This document shows positions 24,124 through 41,220 of a stretch of 64,000 nucleotides of DNA, piece by piece; within the stretch, counting starts at the first letter, position 1; every line of letters starts with the position of its first letter. The position numbers were made by a program, and so were the translations under genes. Source of the stretch: Planctomycetota bacterium (GTDB lineage: Bacteria > Planctomycetota > Brocadiia > SM23-32 > JAKLEA01); the NCBI GenBank assembly GCA_022711755.1, contig JAKLEA010000010.1, forward strand, positions 128,899 to 192,898, given 5' to 3'. Below the pieces are notes generated by a model. That model saw only the letters and a list, made by a program, of their open reading frames with translations, ran no database searches and had not been told where the DNA came from.

Positions 24124-25368
24124 TTGGCGGCCGGAATGAAGCAGTCAAGGGCGATGACCTTCGGGCGTTACGACTACGCCGCGTTTCTGAGTTTCTTCGC
24201 GTACGCATCCGGATCGGTGGCGCTGCCCGTGGCGCTCGTGTCGGTGGCGCGCGATCTTGGATTCACCCTTGAGGAGGGGGGGATGTCGGCGGGGGGGGCG
24301 CTTCACCTCGGGCGCACGATCCCGATGGTGGCGGCGATGCTGATGTGCGGCTTCGCCGCCGGGCGATGGGGCAAGCGCAGGACGTTCGGGTGCGCCGTGG
24401 TCATGATGGCCCTGGGGATTCTGCTGTGCGCTTCCGCGCCGGGATACGCCGCGCTGATGGCGGCCCTGATGCTGGCGGGAATCGGCGAGGGCGTGGTCGA
24501 GGGGCTGGCGACGCCCTTTGTGCAGGACCTGCACCCGGTCGAGCCGGGGCGCTACATCAACTTCACGCACTCGTTCTGGTCTGTCGGCGTTCTGACGACC
24601 GTGCTGGTTTCCGGCGGGCTGATGTCGCTGGGGGTCTCATGGCGCGTTCTGGTGGGCGCGGTGTCGGGCGTGTCCTGCATCGCGGCGGCGCTGCTTCTGA
24701 TGCCTTCGCAGAAAGGGCGCGAGTATCCCGAGCATCCGGAGCCGATCCACTGGATAACGGTCTGGGGGCGGACGTCGAAGATTCTCCGGACGCCGGGGTT
24801 CTGGCCGTTCTTTGCCGCGATGTTCGTCGCCGGCGGCGGGGAGTTCTGCCTGACCTTCTGGTGCGCGAGCTTCATCCAGTTGAATTTTGTGGACTCGGCG
24901 TGGGCGGGCGGCGTCGGAACTGCCTTCTTTGCGGGGGGCATGGTCCTGGGCCGGACCGGCTGGGGCTACCTGATCAGGCAGCATCAGTTGAAGCATCTCA
25001 TCGTGTGGTCGGCGATCGGCGGCGTCATCGTCACGCTCTTCTTCCCGTTCGTGACCGATCTTTGGGCTTTGTTCGGACTGCTCTTCCTTTCAGGGATCGC
25101 CACGGCCCCGTTCTGGCCGAGCGTGCAGAGCTATTGCGCCGACCGCCTGCCGGAGACGGACGCGACCATGCTCTTCATCATCCTGTCCTGCGCGGGGATT
25201 CCCGGCTGCGGTGTGTTCACGTGGTTGATGGGCTGGATCGGCAATCAGAGCGGGGGGCTGCGGACGGCGTTCTATCTAATACCGGCGTGCTATGTGACGC
25301 TGGCGGCGCTTATCGGGTATGACTGGTGGAAGTCGGTAAGGGGGAGTCTTATACGAGAGCAACCGTAG
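24124..25368 (+). CDS. MFS transporter
   Basis: About 12 predicted TM helices and MFS motif A-like GRWGKRRT between TM2 and TM3. Confidence 0.8.
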   Translation: MAAGMKQSRAMTFGRYDYAAFLSFFAYASGSVALPVALVSVARDLGFTLEEGGMSAGGALHLGRTIPMVAAMLMCGFAAGRWGKRRTFGCAVVMMALGILLCASAPGYAALMAALMLAGIGEGVVEGLATPFVQDLHPVEPGRYINFTHSFWSVGVLTTVLVSGGLMSLGVSWRVLVGAVSGVSCIAAALLLMPSQKGREYPEHPEPIHWITVWGRTSKILRTPGFWPFFAAMFVAGGGEFCLTFWCASFIQLNFVDSAWAGGVGTAFFAGGMVLGRTGWGYLIRQHQLKHLIVWSAIGGVIVTLFFPFVTDLWALFGLLFLSGIATAPFWPSVQSYCADRLPETDATMLFIILSCAGIPGCGVFTWLMGWIGNQSGGLRTAFYLIPACYVTLAALIGYDWWKSVRGSLIREQP

Positions 25369-25735: not shown

Positions 25736-27262
25736 TTATTCGAGTTCCCTGATCCGTATGTTCTTGAACCACACGTCGTTGCCGTGATCCTGGAAACCGA
25801 TGTGGCCCTCGCGCTTCATGTCTTTGTAGGCGATTGGGAACTTGTTGTCCGTGCCGTCGGGATTCTTATGGGCCTCTTTCCAGTCGTCCAGATTCATGTC
25901 AATGATCTGCTCGCCGTTCAGTTCCACCTTGACGCTGGGGCCTTTGCAGGTCAGGACGCAGTGGTTCCACTCATCTGTCGGCTTGCAGGCGTTCTTGCTG
26001 GGGGCGAGGCAGTCGTAGATCGCGCCGCAGTCGTGCTTTTCAACCTTTTCCTTGCCGTAGGAGTCGAAGACCTGGATTTCGATGCCGGTGCTGACGGGGT
26101 CGCCCGTTCTGTCCGTGCGGAAGAAGATGCCGCTGTTGCCGCCCTTGGAAATCTTGAAGTCGAGTTCCAGGACGAAGTCGCCGAAGCGGTCCTTCGTCCA
26201 GATGTATCCGCCGCCCTTGCGGGCCAGGACGCCGTCTTGGATGATCCACTGACCCTTCTTGCAGTCCCAGCGGCCGAGTTCGCGGCCCTTCAGGAGATAT
26301 CGCCAGCCTTCCTTGTCCGCCTCGGCGGTTTGCGCGCTGGGCGCGTCGTCAACCGCCAGGTCGCCCATGGCGTACTGGATGCCGTCCAGGTAATGCTGGA
26401 GGATCGCCGGATTCCAGAATATCTCCTCCATATGACCCAGGGAGCAGTAAAAGACGCGGCCCTTGCCGTAGCGGCGGACCCATGTGACGGCGAAGTCGCC
26501 GTCCTTGCGCTTGATGCCGTCCTTGGACATGTTGGTCTTGTTGACGTCCAGGCTGAGCAGGACGCGCAGGTTCTTGCGCGAATAGGGATCGCGGAACTGG
26601 TAAATCTCATCCCTGACGCTGAAGCCCGCCGCGCCGAAGGCGGCGCAGAGGGGGTGATCCGGCTCCTCGACCTTGACGCCGACCTCTTCGCTCCAGGGGT
26701 GGCCGTCAAAGTAGCCGCCCATCATCTCGCCGTATTCCGCCCAGTTGTAGAAGCAGTCGGTGGCGGCGTGGATGCCGATGAGTCCCTTGCCGCCGGAGAC
26801 GAAGTCCAGCAGGGCTTTGCGAAGGCGGTCGCTCCTCTCGCGGGCTTTGGCCTGCTCCGCCTGGGGGAGCTTGTCGTAGTCGGGCGGCATGAACAGGTCG
26901 AGCGTGGTGTTGTTCATGCAGACGGCGTCGAACTGGGCGAGGCTCTCTGGCTCGAACATGGCGATGTCTTCGCTGGTCACGGTCTCAAACGCGCCGGTCT
27001 TCTGGCCCATGAGTTCGAGGGCTTTGGCGCCGCATTCGATTGAGCTGTGCCTGAAGCCGCGGCACAGGCCGAAGACGAGAATCTTGCGGGGCTTGGCGGG
27101 CTTGGCGCGGGCCTTTTCGGGCAGGTATTTCTTGATGAGTTCCAGTTCGCGTTCGGTCGGCGGCGCGGCGAAGAGAGGGCCGGCGCAGGCGGCGGCGAAC
27201 ATGACAACGGCCAGGGCTTGAGCGAGTCGTGATTGCATCTGTAAGTCTCCTTGATGATTCAA
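25736..27262 (-). CDS. secreted ThuA-like (type 1 glutamine amidotransferase-fold) + DUF1080 (3-keto-disaccharide hydrolase-like) fusion protein
   Basis: Signal peptide, then ThuA-like N-terminal half (KILVFGLCRGFRHSSIE...GLIGIHAATD). The C-terminal half is DUF1080 (GWRYLLKG...DFVLELDFKISKGGNSGIFFR...GHIGFQDHGNDVWFKNIRIRE). Confidence 0.75.
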   Translation of the reverse strand: MNHQGDLQMQSRLAQALAVVMFAAACAGPLFAAPPTERELELIKKYLPEKARAKPAKPRKILVFGLCRGFRHSSIECGAKALELMGQKTGAFETVTSEDIAMFEPESLAQFDAVCMNNTTLDLFMPPDYDKLPQAEQAKARERSDRLRKALLDFVSGGKGLIGIHAATDCFYNWAEYGEMMGGYFDGHPWSEEVGVKVEEPDHPLCAAFGAAGFSVRDEIYQFRDPYSRKNLRVLLSLDVNKTNMSKDGIKRKDGDFAVTWVRRYGKGRVFYCSLGHMEEIFWNPAILQHYLDGIQYAMGDLAVDDAPSAQTAEADKEGWRYLLKGRELGRWDCKKGQWIIQDGVLARKGGGYIWTKDRFGDFVLELDFKISKGGNSGIFFRTDRTGDPVSTGIEIQVFDSYGKEKVEKHDCGAIYDCLAPSKNACKPTDEWNHCVLTCKGPSVKVELNGEQIIDMNLDDWKEAHKNPDGTDNKFPIAYKDMKREGHIGFQDHGNDVWFKNIRIRELE

Positions 27263-27323: not shown

Positions 27324-28052
27324 CTACTTCCGGGGAATTTCGCGGATGAAGACGTTCCTGAAGTAGAGGGTGTTTCCGTGGTTCTGGAGTTCGATCTGGC
27401 CCGTCGGGTAAATCGGCTTGTCCCTCTCCCAGTAGTTTTCCATCGTGACGTTGTCAACGACCAGTTCGCCGTTGAGGTAGACGGTGACCTTCTCGCCGAC
27501 CATGATGATGCGGAAGGTGTTCCATTCGCCGATGGGTTTGTCGGCGCATTTGGAGGGCTTGCTGGGATTCTTCTGGTTGTTGTACAGCCCTGCGGAGCCT
27601 TCGGGGTGATCGGCGGGGTCCCATATCTGAACCTGGGGGCTGCCGCGCAGGTAGATGCCGCTGTCGCCGTGCTCCTTTATCTTCCAGTCAACGAAAAGCT
27701 CAAAATCGCCGTAGTCCTTTGCCGTGCAAAGACTGTCTCCGCCACCATCGAAGACCAGGACGCCGTCTTCAACCTTCCAGTGAGCGCGCATTTTTTCGTC
27801 GGCCTTCGCCTGCGCTTTGGCCATCTGCTGCTCGTTCAGCTTCGCCCTGGTCGGTGGGCTTTCCACCAGGCCCTTCCAGCCTTCAAGGTCCTTGCCGTTG
27901 AAGAGGGCGACAAAGCCCTCCGGGGGGCAGTTGAGCCTGCTGTCGCAGGCTTTAGCCGACGCGCAGCGCTTCTCCTCCGCCCTCGCGACGCCGATCACGA
28001 CCGCCAGCGCCGCGATTGCGGCGACGGCAAACATTCCGCGCTTATTACTCAT
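27324..28052 (-). CDS. DUF1080 domain protein (3-keto-disaccharide hydrolase family), secreted
   Basis: Signal peptide, then FNGKDLEGWKG...DFELFVDWKIKEHGDSGIYLRG...GQIELQNHGNTLYFRNVFIREI. A conserved DUF1080 C-terminal motif is present. Confidence 0.85.
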   Translation of the reverse strand: MSNKRGMFAVAAIAALAVVIGVARAEEKRCASAKACDSRLNCPPEGFVALFNGKDLEGWKGLVESPPTRAKLNEQQMAKAQAKADEKMRAHWKVEDGVLVFDGGGDSLCTAKDYGDFELFVDWKIKEHGDSGIYLRGSPQVQIWDPADHPEGSAGLYNNQKNPSKPSKCADKPIGEWNTFRIIMVGEKVTVYLNGELVVDNVTMENYWERDKPIYPTGQIELQNHGNTLYFRNVFIREIPRK

Positions 28053-29029
28053 GGTTTGCTCCGATCCTCTTCAAGAAAAGCCGGGCCGGAAGCGCCGAAG
28101 CGCATGATGGTCCGCCCGTCGTTTTCGGAAAGCATTATCATAGCGGAGACGCCGGGGTGTTGTCGAGAATATCGTTCGATCTCCAGCGGTGACATGAGCA
28201 TGAAGGCAGTCGAAAGACAATCACTCAGCGCGCCGGAGGGAGCGGCGCACCACGCGCCGAGTTTCTCCGTCGCCGGGCGTCCCGTGCGCGGGTCAACTAT
28301 GTGATGCCCCTGCAGGAGGATGCCGGAGCCGCTCAGGGAGGCGTCGCTCAGGCTGATATGGCCGAGGCTGCCGGAGTCGTTCTGCGGGTCGCGCAAGGTC
28401 AGCGGCCAGCCCTTCCGCCCCGGAGGGTTGCCGATGGCAAGCGCGCTGCTCTGCCCGCCGTGCAGGACGGCGTTCGGGATTGACCAGTCGCGCAGAAGCT
28501 CCGCCATGCGGTCGAGCGCGTAACCCTTGCCGACGGCGCCGAGGTCAATGAGGACTCCCGACTTTCGGACGCCGACCGAGTGGCCGGAGGCGTCAATCTC
28601 GAGGAGGCTCATGCCGGTCAGCGCCAGCGCGCGGGCAAGGTCGCCCTCGTCCGGTTTGCCGTCATGGGCGGCGCGAAGGCATTTCAAGATTGCGCCGACG
28701 GTCACGTCGAATGCCCCGTTCGTGTCCGCGTTGACCTGCGCCGCCAGCTTGAGACATTCCATCGCGGCGAGGCCGACGCGGATTCTCTGCCCCGGGGCGA
28801 GGGAGTTTATCCGGGAAACGTCGCTGGAGGGCAGGAAGCGGCTGAGTTCCTCCTCAAGGCGGTCAAGCTCCTCGAAACACGCCCGCGCCGCGTCATAGGC
28901 GTACGCCGGGTTCTCCTCGATCATGAAGATTTCGAAGATGGAACCCATCGCGCGATGGCTGAATCGCCGGAGGGGAACGCCTGGGTCTGCCGGGGAGCCG
29001 ATTCTAGCGCCAATTTCGCGGTCGCTCAT
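28049..29029 (-). CDS. apbE: FAD:protein FMN transferase (ApbE family)
   Basis: AMGSIFEIF...DRLEEELSRF..SDVSRIN and GAxxKGYALD (DLGAVGKGYALD) are present. These motifs are diagnostic of ApbE flavin transferases. Confidence 0.85.
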   Translation of the reverse strand: MSDREIGARIGSPADPGVPLRRFSHRAMGSIFEIFMIEENPAYAYDAARACFEELDRLEEELSRFLPSSDVSRINSLAPGQRIRVGLAAMECLKLAAQVNADTNGAFDVTVGAILKCLRAAHDGKPDEGDLARALALTGMSLLEIDASGHSVGVRKSGVLIDLGAVGKGYALDRMAELLRDWSIPNAVLHGGQSSALAIGNPPGRKGWPLTLRDPQNDSGSLGHISLSDASLSGSGILLQGHHIVDPRTGRPATEKLGAWCAAPSGALSDCLSTAFMLMSPLEIERYSRQHPGVSAMIMLSENDGRTIMRFGASGPAFLEEDRSKP

Positions 29030-30600
29030 TTCGCATTGCCCGCCGCAGGGGGAGGGGACGCCGACCGGCGCTCGATGAGCGCGTCCCAGAGATCGGTCCG
29101 GATGTAACAGAGGATGAAAAGCTCCGGCCTTAGGCCGAAGTACTCCTCGTGATATTCCTTCTCAAGAACGGGAAGCAACTGCTCGCGGTATTCCGGCGCA
29201 AGCAGGATTATCGCGGCGCGAGAGTCGGCGGGCGGGTTTGTCCAGAAGCCGACGTTGTCGAATTTGCGCAGGTACCACGGAAGCGGCCAGTAATCCGGCG
29301 CAATCACCTTCACGGTCAGGTTGTGCCGCTCCGGGCTGACGGAGGCGACCTCCTCGACGCGCTCGTAAAGGTGCTCGACGTCATGGACTGGGTGGCCGTA
29401 GACGTAGGGATTGCGCCTGTCCGTATGGAAGCGGAAGTTGAGCAGATAAGTCTGAGCCAGAAGATTTGCGATCCCCGCGGCCATGAGTATGCGGATGATG
29501 TCCTTTCGCGGGACGGTTCGCTGGGCTCTGACCAGGGAGACGGCGCCGACGCCGCCAAGCAGAACCATGCCCTGAAGGGGGCCGAGGGCGCACCAGGGGG
29601 TTTTATACGGAATGGCCGAGTACGCGGCGAGCAAGAGGATGGTGTAGAAGGCCAGGAAGCGGCAGAGCGGGGCCTCGTCGCCGTTGAGGATTCGCGGCGA
29701 GAAGGCGTAGTAAGCGCCCGTGAGCGCCATTACCAGGATGAACGCCTCAGACCATAGATAGCGGTCGCCGTGGCGATTATAGAGCAGAAGCTTGAGGTAG
29801 AAGTTCCAGGGGTGGACGTGGGCGTCGCGCGCGCCGGCATGATGGAAGTAACGGAAGTAGGTGAGGACGGAATCGAGCGGCCCGCGCGGATTGCTGAGCA
29901 GGGAGGAGAAGAGGACGGCGGAAACGCCGGCGCCGAGGAGGACAGCGGCGACGACGTAGCGGCGGTCCGGGCGAAACTTCTCCGCCGTGACGCCGCCGAA
30001 TCTGCGGTTCCAGAGATGCGTCAGGAACAGCGCTCCGGCCATCGCGGCGAAGGCGACGACGCAGGTCTCCTTCGTGGCGTGCATGAGGCCCGCGCCGAGG
30101 CCGGCCAGGAGCAGCCACCCGTCGTCGCGGCTGCGGTAGTATCGCCAGCATCCGCCGATGACCAGGAGCGTGAAGAAGATGAGCAGCGTCTCGTGGATGT
30201 AATACCGGCTGTAGAAGACCATCGCCGGGGAGACGGCTGCCAGCATCGCGGCGTAAAGGACGATCCATCGCCCCAGCTCCTTCGCAAAGAGGAACAGGAA
30301 CGGGATCATGAGCGCGCCGAGGACGGCGGGGAGCGAGCGGAACACGGTTTCGCCGGTCTGCGCGAAGCTGCCGGCCCCGCTCAGCCACATCGGGATGAAG
30401 CTCAGATAGTAGAGGCTGGGTCCGTGATATTCGTCGGGGTCGTAACGATACTCGTTAAGGTCGTACAGATAGCGGAACTTGATAGTGTTGACGGCTTCAT
30501 CGCCATGCATGGGCCGCGCGTCGAGGGCGATAATCCTCAGCGCGACGGCCCCGGCCAGCGCGGCCGCCATCAGGACGCGGAACGTCCAGCGTCTAGTCAT
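29026..30600 (-). CDS. polytopic membrane protein, GT-C fold / glycosyltransferase family 39 (ArnT/PMT)-like
   Basis: 524 aa with more than 10 TM helices and an N-terminal periplasmic-loop DE motif (PMHGDEAVN) typical of ArnT/PMT GT-C enzymes. The start overlaps the upstream stop by 4 nt. Confidence 0.55.
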   Translation of the reverse strand: MTRRWTFRVLMAAALAGAVALRIIALDARPMHGDEAVNTIKFRYLYDLNEYRYDPDEYHGPSLYYLSFIPMWLSGAGSFAQTGETVFRSLPAVLGALMIPFLFLFAKELGRWIVLYAAMLAAVSPAMVFYSRYYIHETLLIFFTLLVIGGCWRYYRSRDDGWLLLAGLGAGLMHATKETCVVAFAAMAGALFLTHLWNRRFGGVTAEKFRPDRRYVVAAVLLGAGVSAVLFSSLLSNPRGPLDSVLTYFRYFHHAGARDAHVHPWNFYLKLLLYNRHGDRYLWSEAFILVMALTGAYYAFSPRILNGDEAPLCRFLAFYTILLLAAYSAIPYKTPWCALGPLQGMVLLGGVGAVSLVRAQRTVPRKDIIRILMAAGIANLLAQTYLLNFRFHTDRRNPYVYGHPVHDVEHLYERVEEVASVSPERHNLTVKVIAPDYWPLPWYLRKFDNVGFWTNPPADSRAAIILLAPEYREQLLPVLEKEYHEEYFGLRPELFILCYIRTDLWDALIERRSASPPPAAGNAK

Positions 30601-31304
30601 TTTGCAGGCTTGCCGTAGACTTCAACCTCTGTGTAGTGGTTCATGTCGTCGGCGGTGCTGCCTTTGCTGTAAAGGCGGATGTAACGGGCCTTGACGCCCT
30701 TGGCGTCAATGTATTTGCCCTCGTAGGTCTCGAAGTAATGCTTGTCCTTGCCGATGCCCAGGCCGGTGGAGTTGTCGTTGTCGTTGTTGAACAGGGTCTG
30801 GACGTTGGTGATGAAGTCCGGATCATCCGCTGTCTGGATGACGACGCCCTTGTAGATGCGGGGGTCGCGGTGATAGTGCCAGACCATGACGGCGTAGAGT
30901 TCGCTCTGGGCGCCGAGGTCAATCTGGACGTGCTGGAGGCCGGGTCCGAGTTCGACGTAGCCGTCCTCCGTGGCCTCCTTGTATCCGTCGGTGACGTTCT
31001 TGAGGTCGCCGACGATCGGCTCCTCGTCGCTGCCTGTGATCTCCTTGTCCTTGGCGAGGTTGTCGCAGCCCTTCGGCACCTTGATGGCCGGGCGGGGGCC
31101 TTTGCGGGCCGGTTCAAGGTTCAGTCCGGGAGGGACGTTCTTTGGCGTTCCGGCGAAGACGGGCTTGGGCAGTTCCAGTTGAAGGTCAACCAGGTCGGCG
31201 TTCGCCGCGGTTGACGCGCACTTTGCCTCCTCCGCGCGGGCGATTGTCGCGCCCAGCAGCGCGGCGGTCACGATCAGGATCGGCAGGTATGTTCGGTTTT
31301 TCAT
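30597..31304 (-). CDS. secreted F5/8 type C (discoidin)-like carbohydrate-binding domain protein
   Basis: Start MKNRTYLPILIVTAALLGA is preceded by AAGGAG. The C-terminus VQIDLGAQSELYAV...ARYIRLY is discoidin-like. The longer ORF up to 31949 is a spurious extension that overlaps the cytochrome b gene. Confidence 0.55.
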   Translation of the reverse strand: MKNRTYLPILIVTAALLGATIARAEEAKCASTAANADLVDLQLELPKPVFAGTPKNVPPGLNLEPARKGPRPAIKVPKGCDNLAKDKEITGSDEEPIVGDLKNVTDGYKEATEDGYVELGPGLQHVQIDLGAQSELYAVMVWHYHRDPRIYKGVVIQTADDPDFITNVQTLFNNDNDNSTGLGIGKDKHYFETYEGKYIDAKGVKARYIRLYSKGSTADDMNHYTEVEVYGKPAK

Positions 31305-31996
31305 GATGATGTCTCCTTGTCTTTCCCGCTCTTTTCCCACAACGGGTGATGGGCCTTGGCCCACTTTTCGCTTACGCGGCCCGTAATGATTGCCTGAATT
31401 GTTCCGGGATTGGCCAGCGTGCCCAGGTAGGCGTGAGCGAGCGCCCACGCGACCAGGAAGAGCGCGCTGAGCCGGTGAACCCACAGCAGAACGCATTGCC
31501 CCGTCGGGTCCAGCGCCGGCCAGAGCCTGCCCAGGCCGGACAGGATGACCGCGAACCCGGCAGTCGCGACGATCCAGAAATATGCCTTCTGCCCGGCGTT
31601 GAAACGCCCGGCGGGCAGGTGGTCGCGCTTCCAGATGTACCCGCCCATCTGGATCATCCAGCGCAGGTCGTAGGGCTTGAATCCGGCGTCGGCGGACCAT
31701 CCGGCCACAATCAGCGCGGCGCCGATCGCGAAGGCCGGGGCGGCATAGTAGTGGTAAAGCATCAGTTTGCCCGTCAGCGACGGCCATCCGGACAGAACGG
31801 CGTAGAAACCCGTGGCTCCCAGCGTCAGGAAGGACAGCAGCGTCAGCGCATGAGCCAGTCGCTCCAGGACGCTGAACCTGCGAATTTCCGGCTTGCCGCC
31901 GCCGGCGTCCTTGTGAGGCGGACCGAAAACCAGCAGGTGCAGGACGCACGCTCCCGCTGTTCCTATTATCGCAGCTATGGCGAGGACGCGAAACAC
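31301..31996 (-). CDS. membrane cytochrome b subunit (Ni/Fe-hydrogenase / formate dehydrogenase gamma-type, b561-like)
   Basis: Four TM helices with conserved His residues (HALTLLSF, HYYAAPAF, HRLSALFLVAWALAHAY). The start codon abuts the stop of the multiheme cytochrome gene. Confidence 0.7.
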   Translation of the reverse strand: MFRVLAIAAIIGTAGACVLHLLVFGPPHKDAGGGKPEIRRFSVLERLAHALTLLSFLTLGATGFYAVLSGWPSLTGKLMLYHYYAAPAFAIGAALIVAGWSADAGFKPYDLRWMIQMGGYIWKRDHLPAGRFNAGQKAYFWIVATAGFAVILSGLGRLWPALDPTGQCVLLWVHRLSALFLVAWALAHAYLGTLANPGTIQAIITGRVSEKWAKAHHPLWEKSGKDKETSS

Positions 31997-33856
31997 CTAT
32001 TCCTTCTCCGATTCGTCGGCGCAGAACGGGCAGGTCTCAAAGCCCTTCAACGCGCCGGCGATTGCCAGGCAGAGGTTATGCAGAACCGTGATTCCCATGA
32101 CCGCCAGGGAACCGAGCATCACGGCGGTGAAGACCGGGCGCAGCTTCAGGGCGGGCGCCCAGCAGTTCATCAATTCCCCGTCCACTCCCTGGAACGCGGA
32201 CATGGCAGTCGAGGCGGGCTTGTCAGCCGCGGGGGAGGCGTCGGCGGTTACGGTTCCGTGGAAGAACGCGGAGTTCTTTTCGTGGCAGTCCGCGCACCCG
32301 CCCGCGCCGAGGGACTGCTGCGCCGGGCGAACGTCGTGCGCCATGGCCCATGCGTAAGGCTTCGCCTCGCCGCCCGCCTTGCCGCCGGCGGAGTAGACGC
32401 ACCCGCCGGAAACGTAGACCGCCGTTCCTTCCCCGGCGGTCTCGGCTAGCGCTTCGAGCACCTTGTCCACGGTCTCTTTGGCAAGCCCGGCGGCTTTCTT
32501 CTCCCCGCCCTCTTCAGAGGCGGCGACCTTGAGAATTGAGCCGGCCGCTTTGGCTACCTTTGCGGGCGGGATGGGTTGTATCCCGCTTCCGGTCATGACG
32601 CCCCAGAAGGCGGGCCACATCATGCGGTGCGGCGCAATCTTCCCGTCCGCGTTCCGGATGAAGACGGGCTGAACTATGCGCGGGGGATCGTCGTTGCCGC
32701 GGTGCAGGCTGGACGGACCGAGGTTGTGCGCCATGGCCGTCTGGACGGGGATGGTCTGGGCTTCCGGCTTCGGGCCGGAGTGGCAGGCCGTGCAACTCAG
32801 CTTGTCCAGGTGGAGTCCGGGCAGACCTGCGTGGCGGGGTCGGGGGGCGCCGAAACGCCCCTGATTCGCGTCGCCGAGGTGACAGCCGCGGCAGGTCAGG
32901 CTCGCGCGCTCAAGATCGGCGCTTTCGCCTTCATAGCCGCGCACTATGTTGTGGCTGATGCCGTTGGCGTGGCAGTCGGAGCAGCCCATGCCGGAGGCCA
33001 GATGGACGTCGCCGTCCGTCTTCCAATCGTCCACGGGTTCCACATCGGCCCGCCTGACGGTGTGGCAGAAGTAGCAGCGGCGCGGATCGGGCTTCTTCTG
33101 AACGTTGAAGAGAACGCGCCCGTCGGAATCGAAGCGGCTCTGGTCATAGACAATTTCCGGGACGAGGTCTTCCGACCCCGGCTCCGGCATTTCCGGATCG
33201 AAATCGTCCGGGAGCCTCATCGCGGAGCCGCGCACGACGCCAAGTCCGGATACGGCAACGTGCGCCCACTTATAGTTCTGTTGCTTGATGAGGCTGCCCC
33301 ATTGCGTCTGATCGTGTTCCGGGGTCGCGTTATGGCACGTCAGACAGTCAATGGTCAGCTTGCCGCTGACGCCCCACCGGGCGTTTGGATCCTTGTCCCC
33401 GTCGGCAAGTTTCTCCCCGGGACCGCCGCCGGGCATGTGATGGCCAAACTTCTGCACGAATTCCCACGGGCTTAACCCGGCGTCGCCCGGACGGAAGGTC
33501 CCCTCCCATTTGCGGTAGGAGAGGGGGATCTGCGTTCTGGCGGCCTTATCCGTCAGAATCCAGGGTTCGCCGGGCCTGCCGGGTGGCGCTTCGGGGTCAA
33601 CGGCGTTGTAGTGCCGCCCGTTGCCCACGGCGTCGTAGTCGTGGCACTTGCCGCACGTGCCTACGGGGGAGTATGGTCCGGTTTCAGACGGCTCTTTGGG
33701 ATCAATGGTTTCCCGGCTTTCGTCGTAGAGGGAGACGCGGTGCGTGAATCGCGCGCGGCTGCCCGTACGCGGGGTTTCCGCTGCGCGGAGTCCCGCCGCA
33801 AGACCGGCTGCCGCGCTGATCAAGCACGGTAGAAGGAAAAGGCGCTTATTGCGCAT
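31997..33856 (-). CDS. membrane-anchored heptaheme c-type cytochrome
   Basis: Signal peptide, then seven CxxCH motifs (CGKCH, CLTCH, CYFCH, CSDCH, CRGCH, CTACH, CADCH). A single C-terminal TM helix (VFTAVMLGSLAVMGITVLHNLCLAIAGAL) is also present. Confidence 0.8.
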   Translation of the reverse strand: MRNKRLFLLPCLISAAAGLAAGLRAAETPRTGSRARFTHRVSLYDESRETIDPKEPSETGPYSPVGTCGKCHDYDAVGNGRHYNAVDPEAPPGRPGEPWILTDKAARTQIPLSYRKWEGTFRPGDAGLSPWEFVQKFGHHMPGGGPGEKLADGDKDPNARWGVSGKLTIDCLTCHNATPEHDQTQWGSLIKQQNYKWAHVAVSGLGVVRGSAMRLPDDFDPEMPEPGSEDLVPEIVYDQSRFDSDGRVLFNVQKKPDPRRCYFCHTVRRADVEPVDDWKTDGDVHLASGMGCSDCHANGISHNIVRGYEGESADLERASLTCRGCHLGDANQGRFGAPRPRHAGLPGLHLDKLSCTACHSGPKPEAQTIPVQTAMAHNLGPSSLHRGNDDPPRIVQPVFIRNADGKIAPHRMMWPAFWGVMTGSGIQPIPPAKVAKAAGSILKVAASEEGGEKKAAGLAKETVDKVLEALAETAGEGTAVYVSGGCVYSAGGKAGGEAKPYAWAMAHDVRPAQQSLGAGGCADCHEKNSAFFHGTVTADASPAADKPASTAMSAFQGVDGELMNCWAPALKLRPVFTAVMLGSLAVMGITVLHNLCLAIAGALKGFETCPFCADESEKE

Positions 33857-33862
33857 CGTTTA

Positions 33863-35233
33863 TCAGACCTTGAACTGCTCGGGGTTGAACTCGACCATGC
33901 CCTTCTTGGCGATTGAGTCGTTGGCGGCCAGAACGGTGACGGCCGTTTCATAGCCGACCTCGCCCGGGCAGGAAAGGGGAGTGCCGTTGCGGATTGCGTT
34001 GAAGAAGTTCTCCAAGTGGACCTGATGGGGCGGCTTGCTCAGATTGGCGACCATCTGCTCCACCACGGCATCCTTCTTGCCGCCGGCCTTGAGTGTCTCG
34101 CCGACCTTCAACGAGATCTCCGACCGTCCCATCTTATCCAACTCGGCGCTATCGTCTTCCCATTCGCGCTTCTTGGCGCGAGGCTCTTTGATGATCTTGC
34201 CGATCGTATCATCCTCAGAAATTTGCATGGTGCCTTCATCGCCAAGGAATGTTTCATATAGATTGCCGAAGCTGGACGTATTCAGGACTTGGTAGTAAGC
34301 CCTGACGGGGCCGGCTTCGGTGGCGTATTCGTAGATCGTCAGGACGTTATCGTACCACTCGCGGCCCTTGTAATAGTCCAGCCCGCCGCTGGCAATGACA
34401 GTCTTCGGCGGCGTCATAAGGAACCAGTTATAGATGTCAATCTGATGGGAGCCGAGGTCGGCGATCAGACCGCCGGAATATTGGCGGAACCAACGCCAGT
34501 TACGGAAACGCTGCATGGTGTCGTAACCGTACTTCTTAAGGGATGCTTCATCCATATCAGCGCCCTTTGCCCAGCCAATCTCGTCGCTTTGGCTGGTGCC
34601 GCGGTTCCATTGCCCGTTGCAGTGCGTGATGCGGCCCAGAATCTTGTCCTTCGTGATCATCTTCAGCGCATGGTGATAGCGCGGGTTGCTGCGGCGCTGG
34701 TGGCCGATCTGGAGGAGCTTCTTGGTTTCGCGGGAGGCGAGGACCATCTCCTTCGCTTTCGCCAGGTCGTTGGACATCTCTTTTTCGCAGTAGACGTGCA
34801 GTCCGGCCTTCATGCAGGCGATGGAGTGTTCGGCGTGGACCCAGTCCGGGCTGGCGACTATGACGGCGTCCAGGTCCTTCTCCGTGGCCAGCATGTCCTG
34901 ATAGTCCGCATAAGGCTTCGCCTCATGGTCAAACTTTTTCAGTATCTTTACCTGGCGGTTGAGGTTGAAAGCCCAAATGTCGCAGACTGCGACAAAACGG
35001 ATGCCCTCGATTTTCAGGGCGTTGTTCACCAGGTTGTTCCCCTGACTACCAGCGCCGATGATGGCGACCTTGAGATCGTCCGGCTTCGGGGTCGTCTTCG
35101 GGGTTTCCTGGGGCTTTTCCTCCTTGGCGGCCTCCTGGCCCATCACGGACGAGGAGAGGACGGCGCCTGCGCCAACCGTGGCAACGGACCGCACGAAATC
35201 GCGTCTTGAGAGCGTGAATTTGATTTCTTCCAT
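33863..35233 (-). CDS. Tat-exported periplasmic Gfo/Idh/MocA family oxidoreductase (glycoside 3-dehydrogenase-like)
   Basis: Twin-arginine signal SRRDFVRSVATVGAGA, then Rossmann motif KVAIIGAGSQG and a Gfo/Idh/MocA C-terminal domain. It lies 6 nt upstream of the heptaheme cytochrome gene. The ORF from 35284 gives a 17-aa longer N-terminus. Confidence 0.8.
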   Translation of the reverse strand: MEEIKFTLSRRDFVRSVATVGAGAVLSSSVMGQEAAKEEKPQETPKTTPKPDDLKVAIIGAGSQGNNLVNNALKIEGIRFVAVCDIWAFNLNRQVKILKKFDHEAKPYADYQDMLATEKDLDAVIVASPDWVHAEHSIACMKAGLHVYCEKEMSNDLAKAKEMVLASRETKKLLQIGHQRRSNPRYHHALKMITKDKILGRITHCNGQWNRGTSQSDEIGWAKGADMDEASLKKYGYDTMQRFRNWRWFRQYSGGLIADLGSHQIDIYNWFLMTPPKTVIASGGLDYYKGREWYDNVLTIYEYATEAGPVRAYYQVLNTSSFGNLYETFLGDEGTMQISEDDTIGKIIKEPRAKKREWEDDSAELDKMGRSEISLKVGETLKAGGKKDAVVEQMVANLSKPPHQVHLENFFNAIRNGTPLSCPGEVGYETAVTVLAANDSIAKKGMVEFNPEQFKV

Positions 35234-35342
35234 GTTGTGTATCCTTTGAATCAGAGTTGTCGGTTTATCCTGCGGACGGGTCATCCGGCGCGCCGCCGGG
35301 GTTCCGTCCCTGAATTATCAAGCGCGGCGTCCGGGCCGGCAT

Positions 35343-36341
35343 TTATTGATCCTTGAGTTCCACGACCCAGATGTTGCGGTAGCGCACCGGATTTCCGTGG
35401 TCCTGCAGGCGCAGCGGGGCGGTCGGCACGGCATCGGCCCCGGCGGCTCCGCCGGTGGGGCCGGGCACGACGAGGTTGTCATGAATGACCTCGCCGTTAT
35501 GCTCTACCGTGACCGTGACGGGCTTGACGACCTTGCCGGCGGCGTCAAAGCGCGCGGCGCGGAAGGTCATGTCGTAGGTCTGCCAGGAGAGCGGCGGGCA
35601 GCAGGCATTGACGCGCGGCTTGGCGATCTTATAGATGCCGCCGCAGTCGTTGTCCGCCGATCTCAGTCCGTATGAATCGAGAACCTGCACCTCGTAGCGA
35701 TCCTGAAGGTAGACGCCGCTGTTGGAGCGGCCCTGGCCGAGGCTGATGGGGTCGTAGCAGCAGCGGAATTCAAGGTGGAGTTTCATGTCCCCGAACGAGC
35801 GGACGGTCTTGTTGTCTCCCTTGAAGACCTCGACGCTGCCGTCCGGCATGGGCTTCCAGTTCTTGTTGATCCACTCGTCGAGGGGGGGATTTTCGCAGGG
35901 GTACTTCAGCAGGACGATCGCGCCTTCCGGGGGCTTGGCGCCCAGCGTGGGGGACTTGCGGATCGTGTATTCCGCCGCGTACTTGTCGCCCTTCTCGGAT
36001 TCCGCGGCGGCCTTGCCGTTGCCGACGGTTCCTGTCCACTTCACGCCCGCGCCTGAATCGTCAATCTTTATCACGCCGTCCTTGAGCATGCCCCTGAGGA
36101 GCAGGCGGGAAATCTTGCCCTTGTGGCCGGGTATGTCGGTCTGGAATACGACGCGATAACGCTCCTTTCCGTCCGGAACGACGTAGACGACGGCCTTCTG
36201 CTCCTCGCCGGCGGCGGGTTTGAAGGTTCCGATGTAGTCTCCCATGAGCTTGTCCGGCAGTTCCTCCAGCGTCACCTGCTGGGCGGACGCCCGGACGACG
36301 AGGACCGAGAGCAGACAGACAAGCAGGGCTGTTCGGCGCAT
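35343..36341 (-). CDS. secreted DUF1080 domain protein (3-keto-disaccharide hydrolase family)
   Basis: Signal peptide, and a C-terminal DUF1080 signature (DMKLHLEFRCC...GVYLQDRYEVQVLDS...LRLQDHGNPVRYRNIWVVEL). Confidence 0.8.
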   Translation of the reverse strand: MRRTALLVCLLSVLVVRASAQQVTLEELPDKLMGDYIGTFKPAAGEEQKAVVYVVPDGKERYRVVFQTDIPGHKGKISRLLLRGMLKDGVIKIDDSGAGVKWTGTVGNGKAAAESEKGDKYAAEYTIRKSPTLGAKPPEGAIVLLKYPCENPPLDEWINKNWKPMPDGSVEVFKGDNKTVRSFGDMKLHLEFRCCYDPISLGQGRSNSGVYLQDRYEVQVLDSYGLRSADNDCGGIYKIAKPRVNACCPPLSWQTYDMTFRAARFDAAGKVVKPVTVTVEHNGEVIHDNLVVPGPTGGAAGADAVPTAPLRLQDHGNPVRYRNIWVVELKDQ

Positions 36342-36611: not shown

Positions 36612-39600
36612 CTATTTCAGCCCTCCCTGGCAATCGCACTTGATGTCGGGAAGCGGGCCGCCGTCGGCGGCTCGGACGCGCGCGCAGGCGGACCAGTTGT
36701 CCTTGTAGTCAACAACCTTGAGCAACAGGTCGTTCCATCCTTCCTTAAGACTGATTTTCACTTTATCTTCCCAAGCTGTGGTCGGGCGCACTGCCTTGTT
36801 GGAATGGACTTCGACGCCGTTGAGCCAGACCTTGATGCCGTCATCGCTGCCGACTTCAAGCTGCGCATCCTGCTCCTTCGGGGAATGGATGCGCGTGCGG
36901 AGATACGCGGCGCGATCGTCCCCTCCAATGGATGCGTCAAGGTTGATCAGCCAGGGCTTGTTGCCTTCTCCGACGTCCTGGTCATTCCATTCGACGCCCT
37001 TCGCATCGGCCTGTTCCGGCGGGAACGCGACGTCGAATATCTCCTGCCCGGTCTTGCCTTCCTGCATGTAAGGCCCGGACACCTGCCAGCAGTCCAGGAA
37101 GGTATCCGGCGAGAAGGAGAGTAGTTCCGTCGCGCCCTGGGACTCGATCTTCAGTCCTTCGACCTTGCCGCCGTCAACGCCGCGAATTCTGGCGCAGGCG
37201 CTCCAGTCCCCGCCGCCGTCCGTGATTTTCATCAGCAGGCAGTTCCAACCCTCGTTGAGGGCGACCTTAACCTTGTCCTCGCCGGGATTCATGCCGCGGG
37301 AGGCGTTGTTCGCGTGGACGACCGCCCCGTTGAGCCAGACCTTGATGCCGTCGTCGCTGCCCATCTCAAGATTGACCTCCTGAGCCTTCGGGGAGTAGAC
37401 CTTGGTCAGGAGGTACGCGCAGCGCTGGTCTCCGCCGATGGTCGCGTTGAGGTCAATCATCCAGGGCCTGTTCTGGTCGGTCCCGACCTTCTGAGAGGTC
37501 CACTTTTCAGACTTGGCTTCAGAAGTCTCAGGCGGGAAGGCCATGTCGAAAAGGGCCTTGCCGTCCTTCCCCTCTTTCAAATACGGTCCGGCGACAAGCC
37601 ATGACGTGATGAAGTCCTCGTATTTCTCGATGATTTCCCGGACTTCCTGCGCCTGTTTGCGCACGGACTCCGACTTGGAGACTTCCAGAACCTTCGTTAC
37701 CGCCGCTTTCGCGGCATCCTTGTCGTCGGCGCTCACGTTTTTGGCAATCTTCACCAGCGCGAAGGCCGCCTCGGTGGAAAGGTCCTTGTCCGCCAGGTAA
37801 GGTTCGACCATTTTGAGGGCGGCGGAGTTGGAGACATCCGCGACGCCGGAGAGGACCATTCTACGTTCCTCGGGGCGCTCGGCGACCTCCATCCCTTTTG
37901 CGAAGAGAGCCAGCGTCTCAGCCGCGGAGCGCTCGCTGGGCAGGCCGACGACCCTGACGTATCCGCGCAGGGCCAGTACCTTTTTCGGGAGGTCGGGGGC
38001 GTTCTTCGCCAGTTGCAGCAGTTCCTCCGCCGGGGCGGCGTCCGGCCACTCGGACAGGACGCGCAGGGCGGTCTCGCGGGTTTCCTCGTCATCGCTCTTC
38101 AGGGCTGCGCGGACGGACTCAAGCGCCTTCGCCCCGCCCAGTCGCCCGGCCGCGCGAAGCAGCGCGCACCGGGTCTTCGGCTGGGCATTTGCCAGTTCCG
38201 CAAGGATGGGGGCGACGCGCGCGTCCTGGTCGGAAATCTGCTTGGCCGCGTTCACAAGGGACGTTTCAGCCGCTCGCTGTTCCGCGCCCTCGGACTTCAT
38301 GAAAAGAGCCAGCACGTCGCCCATGGCCTCAGGCCCGGCGACCATGCTCAGGGCGTCAAATGCGGCGATGCGGACCTTCTTATCCGCGTCCTGCGCGGAC
38401 CAGAGGAGGATGGGCGCGGCGGCGGAGCAGTTGCGGTCGGCGATCACCTGTATCAGGGCAACCTTCCGCCCGGCGTCCGCGCCGGGGATGGCTGCGACGA
38501 TAGCGGCGTCAACCATCTCGCCCTGCGCGGTCTTCAGGCAGGACAGAGCGGTGTTCCGCTCCGCGCTTTCCTCGGACCCGAGCGCCTTCACCATGATCGG
38601 AACGCCCGACGCGCCGGCCAGCGGGACGAGCGCCTGAAGGGCGGCGTTGCGCACCATGAGGCTCTTGCTCTTCGTGGCTTCGATGACGGCGGGCGTCGCG
38701 GAGGTGTCCTTGCGCTCGGAAAGCGCGCCCAGCAGGGCGGCCTGCGCGGCGGGGCTGAGCTTCGGAAGCTGATCGGCGAATGCCTTTGTCGCCTGCTGGC
38801 CCGGCATGTCAACGACGTACCTGGCCGCCGTTGGGAACAGGTTTGGATCGTCCCCGGCCAGAAGCTTTGAGATCAGGGGCACGGACATCTCGCCCCGGCA
38901 GTTGACAATGCCCTGCAGGGCGGCGATCTGGACGTGCGCAGCCTCGCAGGGGCAGAACATGTCATCATAAATCGCCGCGGCGGCAACCTTATCCCCTGCT
39001 GCCGCGAGCCTGTCCGCGCAGAGCAGATAAGAGTCAATCACGAGCGGTCGCGCCGCGCCGATGCAGGCGTCCTTGAGCTGCTTGAGCTTCGCGGCGGCCT
39101 CGGCGTTGCCGATCTTGCCCAGGGCGGCGACGGCGGCGGACGAGGCGTCAGCGTCGGCGTCGTCGGCCAGCGCGGCCAGTTGCGGGACGGATTGCGCGTC
39201 GCCGCGCTCGCCCAGGGAGTTGATGATGCCAATGCGCGTCTTGCCCTGTGCGGCGTTCAGCGCGTTGCGGAGCGCGTCGCCGGCCTCCGGGCAGGGCATG
39301 CGCTCAAGCGCGTAGCGGGCCATGTCGCCGGGACTGGCGGCGCCGGGACCGGCTTCCGGGGCGGCCAGGAGCTTTTCAAGCGCGGGGACAGCCTCCGCGT
39401 CGCCGATCTCGCGCAACTGGCGGCAGACGAAGTCCTTGCACGCCGTTGTGGCGTCTGTGCCCAGGATGGCGGCAAGGCGCTCGGAGACGGCCTTGCGCTT
39501 TGCCGGGTCAGCCGCGGTCGAGTTGCAGTAGTCCTCTATGACGCTCAGGCAGGCGCGTTCCTTGTCATAGTCGTAGGCGACCATGTCGGCGAACGCCTTC

Positions 39601-39785
39601 TCGACCGGGTCCTGCGCGGCCTGCGCCGCCGGGGGCGCGGTTTCCGGCGCGGACGCCGGCGCGGCTTCCGCCGATTCCTGGCCCTCAGGAACCTGTACCG
39701 TTTCCGTCTTGTTCACAACGACGCATGAACAAAGAAAGATACACGAGACTACTGCCGCAATCATTCTCACGCGCGACATGTTCAT
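36612..39785 (-). CDS. HEAT-repeat lipoprotein with two C-terminal PA14 domains
   Basis: Lipobox FLCSCV, a long array of HEAT/PBS-lyase-like repeats (..AVPAL..LL.D.D..VR..A..ALG..), and two C-terminal PA14-like modules (GPY..EGK...DGIKVWLNG..V). The alternative ATG at 39779 has better RBS spacing. Confidence 0.65.
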   Translation of the reverse strand: MNMSRVRMIAAVVSCIFLCSCVVVNKTETVQVPEGQESAEAAPASAPETAPPAAQAAQDPVEKAFADMVAYDYDKERACLSVIEDYCNSTAADPAKRKAVSERLAAILGTDATTACKDFVCRQLREIGDAEAVPALEKLLAAPEAGPGAASPGDMARYALERMPCPEAGDALRNALNAAQGKTRIGIINSLGERGDAQSVPQLAALADDADADASSAAVAALGKIGNAEAAAKLKQLKDACIGAARPLVIDSYLLCADRLAAAGDKVAAAAIYDDMFCPCEAAHVQIAALQGIVNCRGEMSVPLISKLLAGDDPNLFPTAARYVVDMPGQQATKAFADQLPKLSPAAQAALLGALSERKDTSATPAVIEATKSKSLMVRNAALQALVPLAGASGVPIMVKALGSEESAERNTALSCLKTAQGEMVDAAIVAAIPGADAGRKVALIQVIADRNCSAAAPILLWSAQDADKKVRIAAFDALSMVAGPEAMGDVLALFMKSEGAEQRAAETSLVNAAKQISDQDARVAPILAELANAQPKTRCALLRAAGRLGGAKALESVRAALKSDDEETRETALRVLSEWPDAAPAEELLQLAKNAPDLPKKVLALRGYVRVVGLPSERSAAETLALFAKGMEVAERPEERRMVLSGVADVSNSAALKMVEPYLADKDLSTEAAFALVKIAKNVSADDKDAAKAAVTKVLEVSKSESVRKQAQEVREIIEKYEDFITSWLVAGPYLKEGKDGKALFDMAFPPETSEAKSEKWTSQKVGTDQNRPWMIDLNATIGGDQRCAYLLTKVYSPKAQEVNLEMGSDDGIKVWLNGAVVHANNASRGMNPGEDKVKVALNEGWNCLLMKITDGGGDWSACARIRGVDGGKVEGLKIESQGATELLSFSPDTFLDCWQVSGPYMQEGKTGQEIFDVAFPPEQADAKGVEWNDQDVGEGNKPWLINLDASIGGDDRAAYLRTRIHSPKEQDAQLEVGSDDGIKVWLNGVEVHSNKAVRPTTAWEDKVKISLKEGWNDLLLKVVDYKDNWSACARVRAADGGPLPDIKCDCQGGLK

Positions 39786-39850
39786 TCCTTCCTTTTCTTT
39801 GCCGAAACATCGGGGAAATCCCGAATGCCGGGAATCCGTTCGATTATTGC

Positions 39851-41130
39851 TTAAAGAGTCCACGGGCTGCGCCTGGCGCGATCCAGATACCTCGTCGCCT
39901 CCGGATCGTCAATGAACTGCTCCTTGTCCGGATTCCACTTGAGCTTGCGGTCCAGGAGCATGGAGATGTTGGCCAGGTGGGACAACGTGATTGACCTGTG
40001 CGCGATTTCCACCGGAGCGACTGTTTCCTTGCGGGACTTCACGCAGTCTATGAAGTTCTGGTAATGTCCTGGGCTTTTATAGAGGTGTACTTCGCCGGGC
40101 TTGATTTCCGACTGAAGGAGGGACTTCGGATGGGCGTCAATGAACCCGCGGTCCACGTGAACCCAGCCTTCCGTTCCCTCGAAGCGGACGCCGCCCTTGT
40201 TCTTGTTGCTGCAGATCAGCTTGACGCCGTTGGCGTAAAGGTATTCGGTATGGTGCTCGGTGGCTGTGTTGTAGAGGCCCTCCTTAGGGAACACGCCGTG
40301 GCCCTCGATCTCGATGGGGCCGGTATACATCGTTCCGTTGCCCCACTGGGCGATGTCGTTATGGTGCGCGCCCCAGTCGGTGATATTCCCGCCGGAGTAG
40401 TCGAGTATCCAGCGGAAGTTCCAGTGCGTCCGGTTCCTGGTGTAGGGGACCCATGGGGCCTGCCCCAGCCACATGTCCCAGTCGAAGCCCGGTGGCACTG
40501 GTTCCGGCGGCTGGACGCCTGTGCTGGGGGAGCCGCCGATGCCGGTCTTGATGGTGTGCAGCTTGCCGATGCGCTCGTTGCGGACCAGCTCGCAGCCGAA
40601 CCGGAATTCCGGGCCTGAGCGCTGTTGGCTGCCGGTCTGGAAGACCACGCCGTAACGCTTGATCGTGTCGGACATGACGCGCCCCTCGCGCACGGTCAGC
40701 GAGAGAGGCTTCTGGCAATACATGTCCTTGCCGGCCTTGGCGGCGGCAATGGCGATGATGGCGTGCCAGTGATCCGGCGTGGCGATCCCGACGGCGTCAA
40801 TGTCGTCGCGGGCGATAATCTCGCGGAAATCGTTGTAGCCCTTGCAGACGTTGCCGAGGTAGCGGAGGTTGACGGTCTTTACGGAGTCCTCGCGGCGGGA
40901 AGTGTCCACGTCGCAGCAGGCCACGACCTGGCATTCCGGGTTTCCCAGGAACGCGCCCATGTCGCCGTTGCCCATTCCGCCGCAACCGATCTGGCCCATT
41001 ACTATGCGGTTGCTCGCCGAGGGCGTTCCGTTTTTGCCCAGGGCGTTTGACGTGACGATGTAGGGCGCGAAGGCGGCCGAGGCCGCCGCCGTCAGGAACT
41101 GCCTTCGCGATACGTTGCCTTTTCGGTGCA
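39851..41130 (-). CDS. Tat-exported Gfo/Idh/MocA-like oxidoreductase (GH109-like family)
   Basis: Tat signal SRRQFLTAAASAAFA, Rossmann motif MGQIGCGGMGNGDM, and a conserved ATPDHWHA. It is a tandem paralog of 41221..42504. The start coordinate may be off by about 1 nt. Confidence 0.75.
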
Positions 41131-41220
41131 TTCTGAGCGTCTCCAGTGGTCGGGCATTTACGATGTGACGAAACGCGGGGGCGCGCAATGCGCCCTTGCG
41201 CAGAGCATTTTCTCTCGCTG

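Follow-up and report, generated by a model that had tools for sequence, protein, structure and literature searches.

Background

The closest described counterpart of the system treated here is CbcBA (Cbc5; GSU0594/GSU0593) of Geobacter sulfurreducens, in which a seven-haem periplasmic cytochrome c with a C-terminal transmembrane (TM) anchor is paired with a dihaem cytochrome b. CbcB belongs to the quinone-reactive HydC/FdnI/PhsC superfamily, CbcBA acts as a quinol oxidase at low potential, and clusters of homologues have been reported as hypothetical in Caldithrix, Bacteroidetes and Verrucomicrobia, and fusions are known in the CbcBA family as well. A separate body of work concerns Gfo/Idh/MocA enzymes exported by way of twin-arginine translocation (TAT). 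Such enzymes, among them BT2158 and AL3, act in the periplasm and turn glycosides into 3-keto-glycosides by oxidation, after which DUF1080 proteins act as 3-keto-glycoside lyases or hydratases. Enzymes of the BT2158/AL3 type hold their nicotinamide adenine dinucleotide (NAD) tightly and in non-exchangeable form, and become stuck in the reduced state in vitro. An oxidation step and a reduction step are both required in the pathway as published; what re-oxidises the NAD in vivo is still an open question, for which the authors of that work speculate about cytochromes. Liu et al. described ThuAB, of which ThuB is a Gfo-family protein, as cytochrome c-dependent. Here we analyse a stretch of 64,000 nucleotides (nt) from a Planctomycetota bacterium (GenBank assembly GCA_022711755.1, contig JAKLEA010000010.1, positions 128,899 to 192,898), referred to below as the window, that encodes a heptahaem c-type cytochrome followed by an FdnI-type cytochrome b and preceded by a TAT-exported Gfo/Idh/MocA oxidoreductase, GfoA (Table 1). 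We establish the anatomy and family of the cytochrome c, its coupling to the cytochrome b and its linkage to GfoA, and propose that the two cytochromes may carry electrons from exported NAD-bound dehydrogenases to menaquinone.

The heptahaem cytochrome c

A first-pass annotation had described a protein of about 620 residues with seven CxxCH motifs and a single C-terminal TM helix, and it was accurate in each respect. The cytochrome c contains exactly seven such motifs, at residues 68, 171, 261, 292, 322, 355 and 521, and a motif scan of the whole protein returned 0 CxxCK and 0 CxnCH variants. When the sequence was shuffled 20,000 times, two or more CxxCH motifs arose in only 9 shuffles, so that seven lie far beyond chance. 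By hydropathy, residues 572-604 form the single C-terminal TM segment, beyond which there is a short tail. The hydrophobic N-terminus is signal-like (MRNKRLFLLPCLISAAAGLAAGLRA/AE), with a signal peptide of approximately residues 1-26. In a public gene call on an identical JGI metagenome contig the gene set is the same and the cytochrome c begins 11 codons later (608 aa). The ATG at 33856 is judged the better start, as it gives the protein an n-region (MRNKR) and a better signal peptide.

The haems are unevenly distributed. The N-terminal part is haem-poor, with two haems in about 230 residues, and a beta-rich insert is predicted between haems at approximately residues 365-510. These two regions were confidently predicted in an AlphaFold2 (AF2) model with a predicted local distance difference test (pLDDT) score of 70, and a Foldseek search of this model against the PDB gave no match.

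Searches for relatives showed that the protein belongs to an unnamed family. More than 2,050 relatives were recovered in a word-indexed search, all of them unnamed or labelled hypothetical and most from metagenome-assembled genomes of Planctomycetota. In an exhaustive HMMER profile search of 1.84 billion representatives, clustered at 50% identity, the family comprised 539 clusters at E<=1e-30, a number that rose to 1,235 with the threshold relaxed to E<=1e-3; it is therefore bounded. In a scan of one genome per species, at least 561 species carried relatives; these were mostly Planctomycetota, the rest being spread over about seven further groups. An alignment of 31 sequences of 40-48% identity shows no variation in any of the seven CxxCH motifs, nor in eight further histidines (H39, H82, H285, H302, H342, H349, H377 and H507), which are enough for bis-His ligation of all seven haems. 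This conservation points to an electron wire in which all seven haems would be bis-His ligated, rather than to a protein with a catalytic haem. A C-terminal CPFC sequence is unconserved in the same alignment.

The first-pass annotation had also considered the protein a misfit to NrfH/NapC-type and HAO-type families, and the curated models agree. Scores fell below the cutoffs for NapC/NirT (PF03264; 16.4 bits, cutoff 24.1), NrfB (NF008659; 28.9 bits, cutoff 184), octahaem tetrathionate reductase (TIGR04315; 22.2 bits, cutoff 375) and the 'methano7heme' protein MmcA (TIGR04314; 20.9 bits, cutoff 250). Cytochrome_C7 (PF14522) matched with 39.3 bits against a cutoff of 24.8, over residues 281-360 only. 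A profile of the family compared with all PDB sequences showed local haem-motif similarity to NrfA and nothing more. The annotation had allowed that a clear match to a characterised multihaem family of non-sugar function might surface; none did in these hidden Markov model and PDB profile comparisons. NapC, NirT, NrfH and CymA, like the octahaem HAO group, are comparable in that a multihaem cytochrome c links the quinone pool with periplasmic redox enzymes. However, the NapC/NirT/NrfH/CymA proteins have an N-terminal anchor, four or five haems and no cytochrome b, in contrast to the seven haems and C-terminal anchor found here, and HAO and octahaem enzymes have eight haems, one of them catalytic, whereas the window protein has seven and no variant motif. 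As far as can be judged from sequence and profile comparison, the cytochrome c family is real, conserved and uncharacterised, and lies outside every curated multihaem family and solved structure searched.

The FdnI-type cytochrome b

The cytochrome b had been reported to start at the cytochrome c stop codon, and indeed the stop codon TAG directly abuts the GTG start of the downstream gene, with a Shine-Dalgarno-like GGAGAAGGA just upstream. Its earlier description as 'b561-like' holds as far as the Pfam name goes, since the protein matches PF01292, 'prokaryotic cytochrome b561' (E=6.8e-18; 65.5 bits vs 30.1); more precisely, it is a dihaem cytochrome b of the FdnI/HydC type. It scores 119.1 bits against TIGR01583, the formate dehydrogenase gamma subunit, above the cutoff of 115.85, and a search of curated models also gave a weak match to PhsC. 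Among solved structures it has a single relative, FdnI of E. coli (1KQF chain C, E=3.9e-12). Five TM helices are present, an extra N-terminal helix preceding the four-helix FdnI core.

The candidate haem ligands are H49, H82, H174 and H188, with a spacing of 14 residues between H174 and H188. They reproduce the ligand pattern of FdnI, to which TM I and TM II contribute a histidine each and TM IV a pair 14 residues apart. The protein also has an FdnI-like 'GRFNAGQK' loop, in which GRFNAGQKAYFW aligns with GKYNAGQKMMFW of FdnI; in the Fdn-N structure the NAGQK loop sits near the cytoplasmic haem and the menaquinone site. Among 72 homologues, H174 is present in all 72, H82 in 71 and H188 in 56, being missing in the other 16; H49 is found in 8, and the position is mostly tyrosine in the homologues. 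A histidine occurs on the extra N-terminal helix in about 45 of the 72. Judging from these alignments, the window protein is placed in the most FdnI-like subgroup, and some members of the family may carry a single haem b, or a fourth ligand that differs. The anchor residue H593 of the cytochrome c was considered as a haem b ligand, by analogy with CbcA, and ruled out, as it is unconserved and an anchor histidine occurs in 2 of 72 loci.

The arrangement resembles formate dehydrogenase N in a further respect: in FdnI/FdnH (1KQF) as well, a single-helix C-terminal anchor of the periplasmic electron-transfer subunit adjoins the cytochrome b. The periplasmic partner here, however, is a multihaem cytochrome c rather than an Fe-S subunit with a molybdoenzyme, and the window protein has the extra N-terminal helix. 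No FdnG/FdnH-type molybdoenzyme or Fe-S genes were found among the window's genes scanned. Therefore, with a cytochrome c as neighbour, the protein is a member of the FdnI family and not a formate dehydrogenase subunit.

We also observed a resemblance between the cytochrome b's extra N-terminal helix (VFRVLAIAAIIGTAGACVLHLL) and the C-terminal anchor of the cytochrome c (RPVFTAVMLGSLAVMGITVLHNL), and in hhalign comparisons the anchor helix of fused c-b proteins aligns to the N-terminal helix of separate b proteins. The resemblance suggests that a fused gene may have split with duplication of the helix at the junction of the two genes, or that the opposite took place.

Comparison with CbcBA

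The first-pass annotation held that the haem count and anchor did not fit the NrfH/NapC and HAO-like families. This is correct, but the layout is known from Geobacter CbcBA, which by its published description likewise combines a seven-haem cytochrome c with a C-terminal anchor, the c gene first and a dihaem b gene second. There are several differences. CbcB is described as a protein with four TM helices that holds three histidines, the CbcA anchor supplying the fourth ligand, whereas the window cytochrome b has five TM helices and four histidines. The window cytochrome c is much larger (619 aa), with large non-haem inserts. The partner genes encode exported sugar dehydrogenases, unlike the extracellular-electron-transfer context of CbcBA. 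As for regulation, the CbcBA operon is under sigma54/BccR control, and no sigma54/BccR-type activator was found among approximately 35 window proteins scanned, a subset of the open reading frames (ORFs). The window module is thus a variant of a known bc-type quinone-linked cytochrome layout, CbcBA being compared by description, and the setting in which it is found, periplasmic glycoside oxidation, is coherent and new.

Conservation of the neighbourhood

We examined the surroundings of the best 80 loci from the one-genome-per-species scan, searching the ORFs of each locus with the window proteins. Enough flanking sequence was available at 77 loci for the next gene, at 69 for the upstream side and at 54 for the downstream side. 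The loci come from Planctomycetota (Phycisphaerae, Sedimentisphaerales, Pirellulales and Tepidisphaerales) and from Sumerlaeia, KSB1, Omnitrophota, Kiritimatiellota, Verrucomicrobiota, Calditrichaceae and bins labelled Cytophagia. The recurring order is GfoA, cytochrome c, cytochrome b, a discoidin-like protein termed F58, an Agl23-like membrane protein and ApbE, and our literature search found no description of this cassette among the papers available to it.

An FdnI-like cytochrome b is present at 76 of the 80 loci and is the immediately next gene at 69 of 77. At most of the remaining loci the b domain is fused to the C-terminus of the cytochrome c, and about one third of the top cytochrome c representatives are 750-870 aa long. 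The fused extension aligns with the separate b family at an hhalign probability of 100% (E=4.8e-40), and the existence of such fusions indicates that cytochromes c and b work together. An AF2 model of one natural fusion, P0092, had a pLDDT of 62.5 and showed a five-helix membrane bundle, for which Foldseek returned generic helical bundles only (E>0.4).

A link to Gfo/Idh/MocA genes had been suspected in the first-pass annotation, which suggested a co-occurrence check, and the check proved positive. A Gfo ORF ends within 700 nt upstream of the cytochrome c at 52 of the 69 loci, and at five more there is one intervening gene. A member of a dedicated subfamily, that of GfoA, lies upstream at 56-58 of the 69 loci. 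Among 139 Gfo-like ORFs in the 80 loci, 58 are of the GfoA type, and without exception these are found on the upstream side of the cytochrome; the remaining 81 fall into different subfamilies. This linkage extends over Planctomycetota, Sumerlaeia, KSB1, Omnitrophota, Kiritimatiellota, Verrucomicrobiota and Calditrichaceae. On the downstream side F58 is found at 38, the Agl23-like protein at 35 and ApbE at 36 of the 54 loci, and all three occur together at 31.

GfoA itself has the TAT motif SRRDFV and the Rossmann motif GAGSQG. Its relatives in the PDB include inositol dehydrogenase, DgpA, GFOR and glucuronide 3-dehydrogenase. It scores 82 bits against the BT2158-type family model (BT_2158, NF058561), where the cutoff is 750, and is not an equivalog; another Gfo protein of the window, at 41221-42555, scores 136 bits.

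Proposed role and alternatives

We propose that the bc-type module links one or more exported NAD-bound dehydrogenases to menaquinone, with electrons flowing from donor to quinone, and we put the probability of this reading at roughly one half. What we infer is which way the electrons flow, what the substrate is and how NADH passes electrons on to haem. The cytochrome c would be Sec-exported, carrying seven bis-His haems in the periplasm and held at the membrane by its one C-terminal helix. The anchor helix would pack on the FdnI-type dihaem cytochrome b, which in turn would exchange electrons with the menaquinone pool. The module would serve as a dedicated redox partner of GfoA, and probably of the island's other exported Gfo enzymes, all of which are predicted to act in the periplasm, where they would form 3-keto products by oxidation of sugars or glycosides. 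From the dehydrogenase, electrons would travel along the chain of haems c and on through both haems b, and would reduce menaquinone at a site like that of FdnI, close to the cytoplasmic face. Their passage would re-oxidise the non-exchangeable NAD, and energy could be conserved by a redox loop in the style of formate dehydrogenase N. Should the quinone site lie on the cytoplasmic side, which is its place in Fdn-N, electron transfer through the module would be electrogenic.

Two considerations favour flow from donor to quinone. FdnI/HydC relatives take electrons from periplasmic dehydrogenases and reduce menaquinone, and it is FdnI, which reduces menaquinone with electrons supplied from the periplasm, that the window cytochrome b most closely resembles. 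Moreover, net re-oxidation is what Gfo dehydrogenases lack. Electron transfer from NADH to haem normally needs a flavin, and the conserved ApbE hints at one that is covalently bound. A more specific proposal, which we make tentatively and regard as doubtful, is that the cassette of GfoA, cytochromes c and b, F58, Agl23-like protein and ApbE constitutes a previously unrecognised periplasmic glycoside (3-)dehydrogenase:menaquinone oxidoreductase, in which NAD would be re-oxidised via a haem wire, possibly by way of a non-canonically attached flavin installed by ApbE.

Several findings weigh against donor-to-quinone flow as set out here. The weakest step is that between NADH and the haems, where no flavin or other converter from two-electron to one-electron transfer was located. 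Neither of the canonical ApbE target motifs, [ST]GA[ST] and Dxx[ST]GA[ST], occurs in any cassette family or in the window, so that no cassette protein has a canonical flavinylation motif, and the window ApbE itself is without a signal peptide. The FdnI-like quinone loop and H49 are kept only in the window-like subgroup (8 of 72 cytochrome b sequences), and a quinone site on the cytoplasmic side therefore cannot be extended to the whole family. Approximately 12 of the 69 loci carry the cassette with no adjacent Gfo gene and with housekeeping genes upstream, for example Tgt and HldE. Lastly, the organism may be an anaerobe, given the glycyl-radical enzyme encoded in the window, so that a use for reduced quinol is not evident.

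The strongest alternative, which we consider unlikely, is that electrons run the other way, as in CbcBA, with the module acting as a menaquinol:cytochrome c oxidoreductase that draws electrons from the quinone pool for periplasmic acceptors. In variants of this scheme it would re-reduce NAD+ in Gfo-type 3-keto-sugar reductases, or buffer electrons between the oxidising and reducing Gfo enzymes of a redox-neutral 3-keto pathway. CbcBA, similar in layout, is a low-potential quinol oxidase, and the PhsC-type relatives of the cytochrome b family, to which the window protein is weakly matched, run in that direction. Many of the cytochrome b homologues are without the FdnI-type cytoplasmic haem ligands, and the islands hold several exported Gfo paralogues, as might be expected if oxidation and reduction are both required, as in the published pathway. 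However, just one Gfo subfamily is tied to the cytochrome, and the nearest relative of the window cytochrome b, FdnI, is a quinone reductase. Menaquinol (about -75 mV) would also be a poor reductant for NAD+ (-320 mV) unless the proton-motive force drives the reaction.

Decidedly improbable, in our estimation, is a general respiratory or extracellular-electron-transfer module, that is, a CbcBA/Cbc-like quinol oxidase for metals or other acceptors whose Gfo neighbours are merely common genes. The loci with no Gfo neighbour would be accounted for in this way, and the CbcBA authors' report of hypothetical homologue clusters in Caldithrix, Bacteroidetes and Verrucomicrobia is in keeping with it. 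On the other hand, the upstream Gfo is a single orthologous subfamily that occupies the same position in all 58 cases and in many phyla, and the genes are spaced closely enough to permit translational coupling. The window showed neither an outer-membrane conduit nor further cytochromes, and the features of CbcB (three histidines within four TM helices, with a fourth histidine provided by the c anchor) are mismatched. There is scarcely any likelihood that the heptahaem protein is itself an enzyme, such as an oxidoreductase of nitrite, hydroxylamine, sulfite or tetrathionate to which the cytochrome b would provide a quinol/quinone link. A weak, local similarity to the haem motifs of NrfA, NrfB and the octahaem family speaks for such a role. 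Against it, every family score is far under its cutoff, no CxxCK or other special haem motif is present, the eight invariant histidines leave no obvious open coordination site, and the gene context is related to carbohydrates and not to nitrogen or sulfur metabolism.

The proposed flow from dehydrogenase to menaquinone bears on the breakdown of glycans. Gfo/Idh/MocA glycoside 3-dehydrogenases start a recently described route of broad specificity, and the cassette is a concrete candidate for the re-oxidation of their NAD. It is widespread in glycan-degrading phyla (for example Planctomycetota, Kiritimatiellota, Verrucomicrobiota, Sumerlaeia and KSB1), it makes the question of re-oxidation testable, and it provides a name and a context for several hundred clusters of multihaem cytochromes now labelled hypothetical. 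If true, the proposal would supply the missing in vivo re-oxidant of the 3-keto-glycoside pathway and define a new entry point for electrons into anaerobic or microaerobic respiratory chains, and bacteria of the PVC group and their relatives would gain energy from the oxidation of sugars outside the cytoplasm.

The island and other features of the window

The cassette lies in a series of fourteen minus-strand genes running from ResB/CcsB to a ThuA-DUF1080 fusion. Their order is ResB/CcsB, CcsA, two TAT-Gfo genes, a HEAT-repeat gene, DUF1080, GfoA, cytochrome c, cytochrome b, F58, the Agl23-like gene (TIGR03663), ApbE, DUF1080 and ThuA-DUF1080 (Table 1). From GfoA through the DUF1080 gene after ApbE the successive spacings are 6, 0, -4, -4, -4 and -4 nt: the GfoA stop is 6 nt ahead of the cytochrome c start, F58 overlaps the cytochrome b stop by 4 nt, and the Agl23-like gene overlaps its neighbours by 4 nt on both sides. 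CcsA likewise overlaps the start of the first Gfo gene by 4 nt. CcsA and ResB/CcsB are components of System II cytochrome c maturation. Apart from the heptahaem protein, no product of the window's genes carries a CxxCH motif, and these adjacent maturation genes therefore plausibly serve it.

A combination of TAT-Gfo, DUF1080 and ThuA in one island is shared with the BT2156-BT2160 (AL1-AL5) loci of Bacteroides and Alistipes and with rhizobial ThuAB. Those loci have no cytochrome genes, and their NAD is thought to be recycled by the reduction of 3-ketoglucose. In the window, by contrast, the cassette of cytochromes c and b, F58, Agl23-like protein and ApbE is additional, and GfoA is only a distant relative of BT2158.

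With regard to the downstream cassette proteins, an alignment of 48 F58 sequences showed the conserved motifs LPKPxFxGTP and NNDxDNSxGxG, and a search of the PDB with F58 found no relative. The Agl23-like protein scored 193 bits against TIGR03663 (cutoff 126).

Table 1. Features of the island, in order of transcription, with positions in the window
Feature	Positions	Strand	Length (aa)	Basis
ResB/CcsB, System II cytochrome c maturation	43803-45575	-		domain search
CcsA, System II cytochrome c maturation	42552-43508	-		domain search
TAT-signal Gfo/Idh/MocA protein	41221-42555	-		domain search, TAT motif
TAT-signal Gfo/Idh/MocA protein	39851-41131	-		domain search, TAT motif
HEAT-repeat protein	36612-39863	-	1083	domain search
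DUF1080 (3-keto-glycoside lyase/hydratase family) protein, directly upstream of GfoA	35343-36341	-		PF06439, E=2e-29
GfoA, TAT-exported Gfo/Idh/MocA oxidoreductase	33863-35284	-	473	PF01408, PF02894
Heptahaem c-type cytochrome	31997-33856	-	619	ORF list, motif count, hydropathy
Cytochrome c, codons added by the ATG start	33824-33856	-	11	comparison with public gene call
Cytochrome c, signal peptide	33779-33856	-		signal-like N-terminus
Cytochrome c, region covered by CxxCH motifs	32282-33655	-		motif scan
Cytochrome c, C-terminal TM anchor	32045-32143	-		hydropathy
FdnI-type dihaem cytochrome b	31301-31996	-	231	PF01292, TIGR01583, 1KQF_C match
Cytochrome b, extra N-terminal helix	31931-31996	-		
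F58, secreted discoidin/F5-8-type-C-like protein	30597-31304	-	235	weak PF00754/PF22633
Agl23/TIGR03663-like, PMT_2-like polytopic membrane protein	29026-30600	-	524	PF02366, PF13231
ApbE-family FAD:protein FMN transferase	28049-29029	-	326	PF02424, E=3.6e-49
DUF1080 protein, operon tail	27324-28052	-		domain search
ThuA-DUF1080 fusion, operon tail	25736-27262	-		domain search

The HEAT-repeat protein of the island has two C-terminal repeats that are weakly DUF1080-like, and similar HEAT proteins recur in related loci. A second pair is found at 55518-60247 (-), where a ThuA plus HEAT-repeat protein (1129 aa) is followed by a further Gfo/Idh/MocA protein with the TAT-like N-terminus MNLTRRRLL. 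More carbohydrate context is provided by a beta-helix protein and a GH123-like glycoside hydrolase at 19094-23959 (+), upstream of an MFS transporter (24124-25368). The glycyl-radical enzyme, with PFL-like and Gly_radical domains, is encoded at 50278-52653 (+) and suggests an anaerobic or facultative lifestyle. A DnaA gene is present at 13464-14948 (-), and the window may therefore lie near the chromosomal replication origin.

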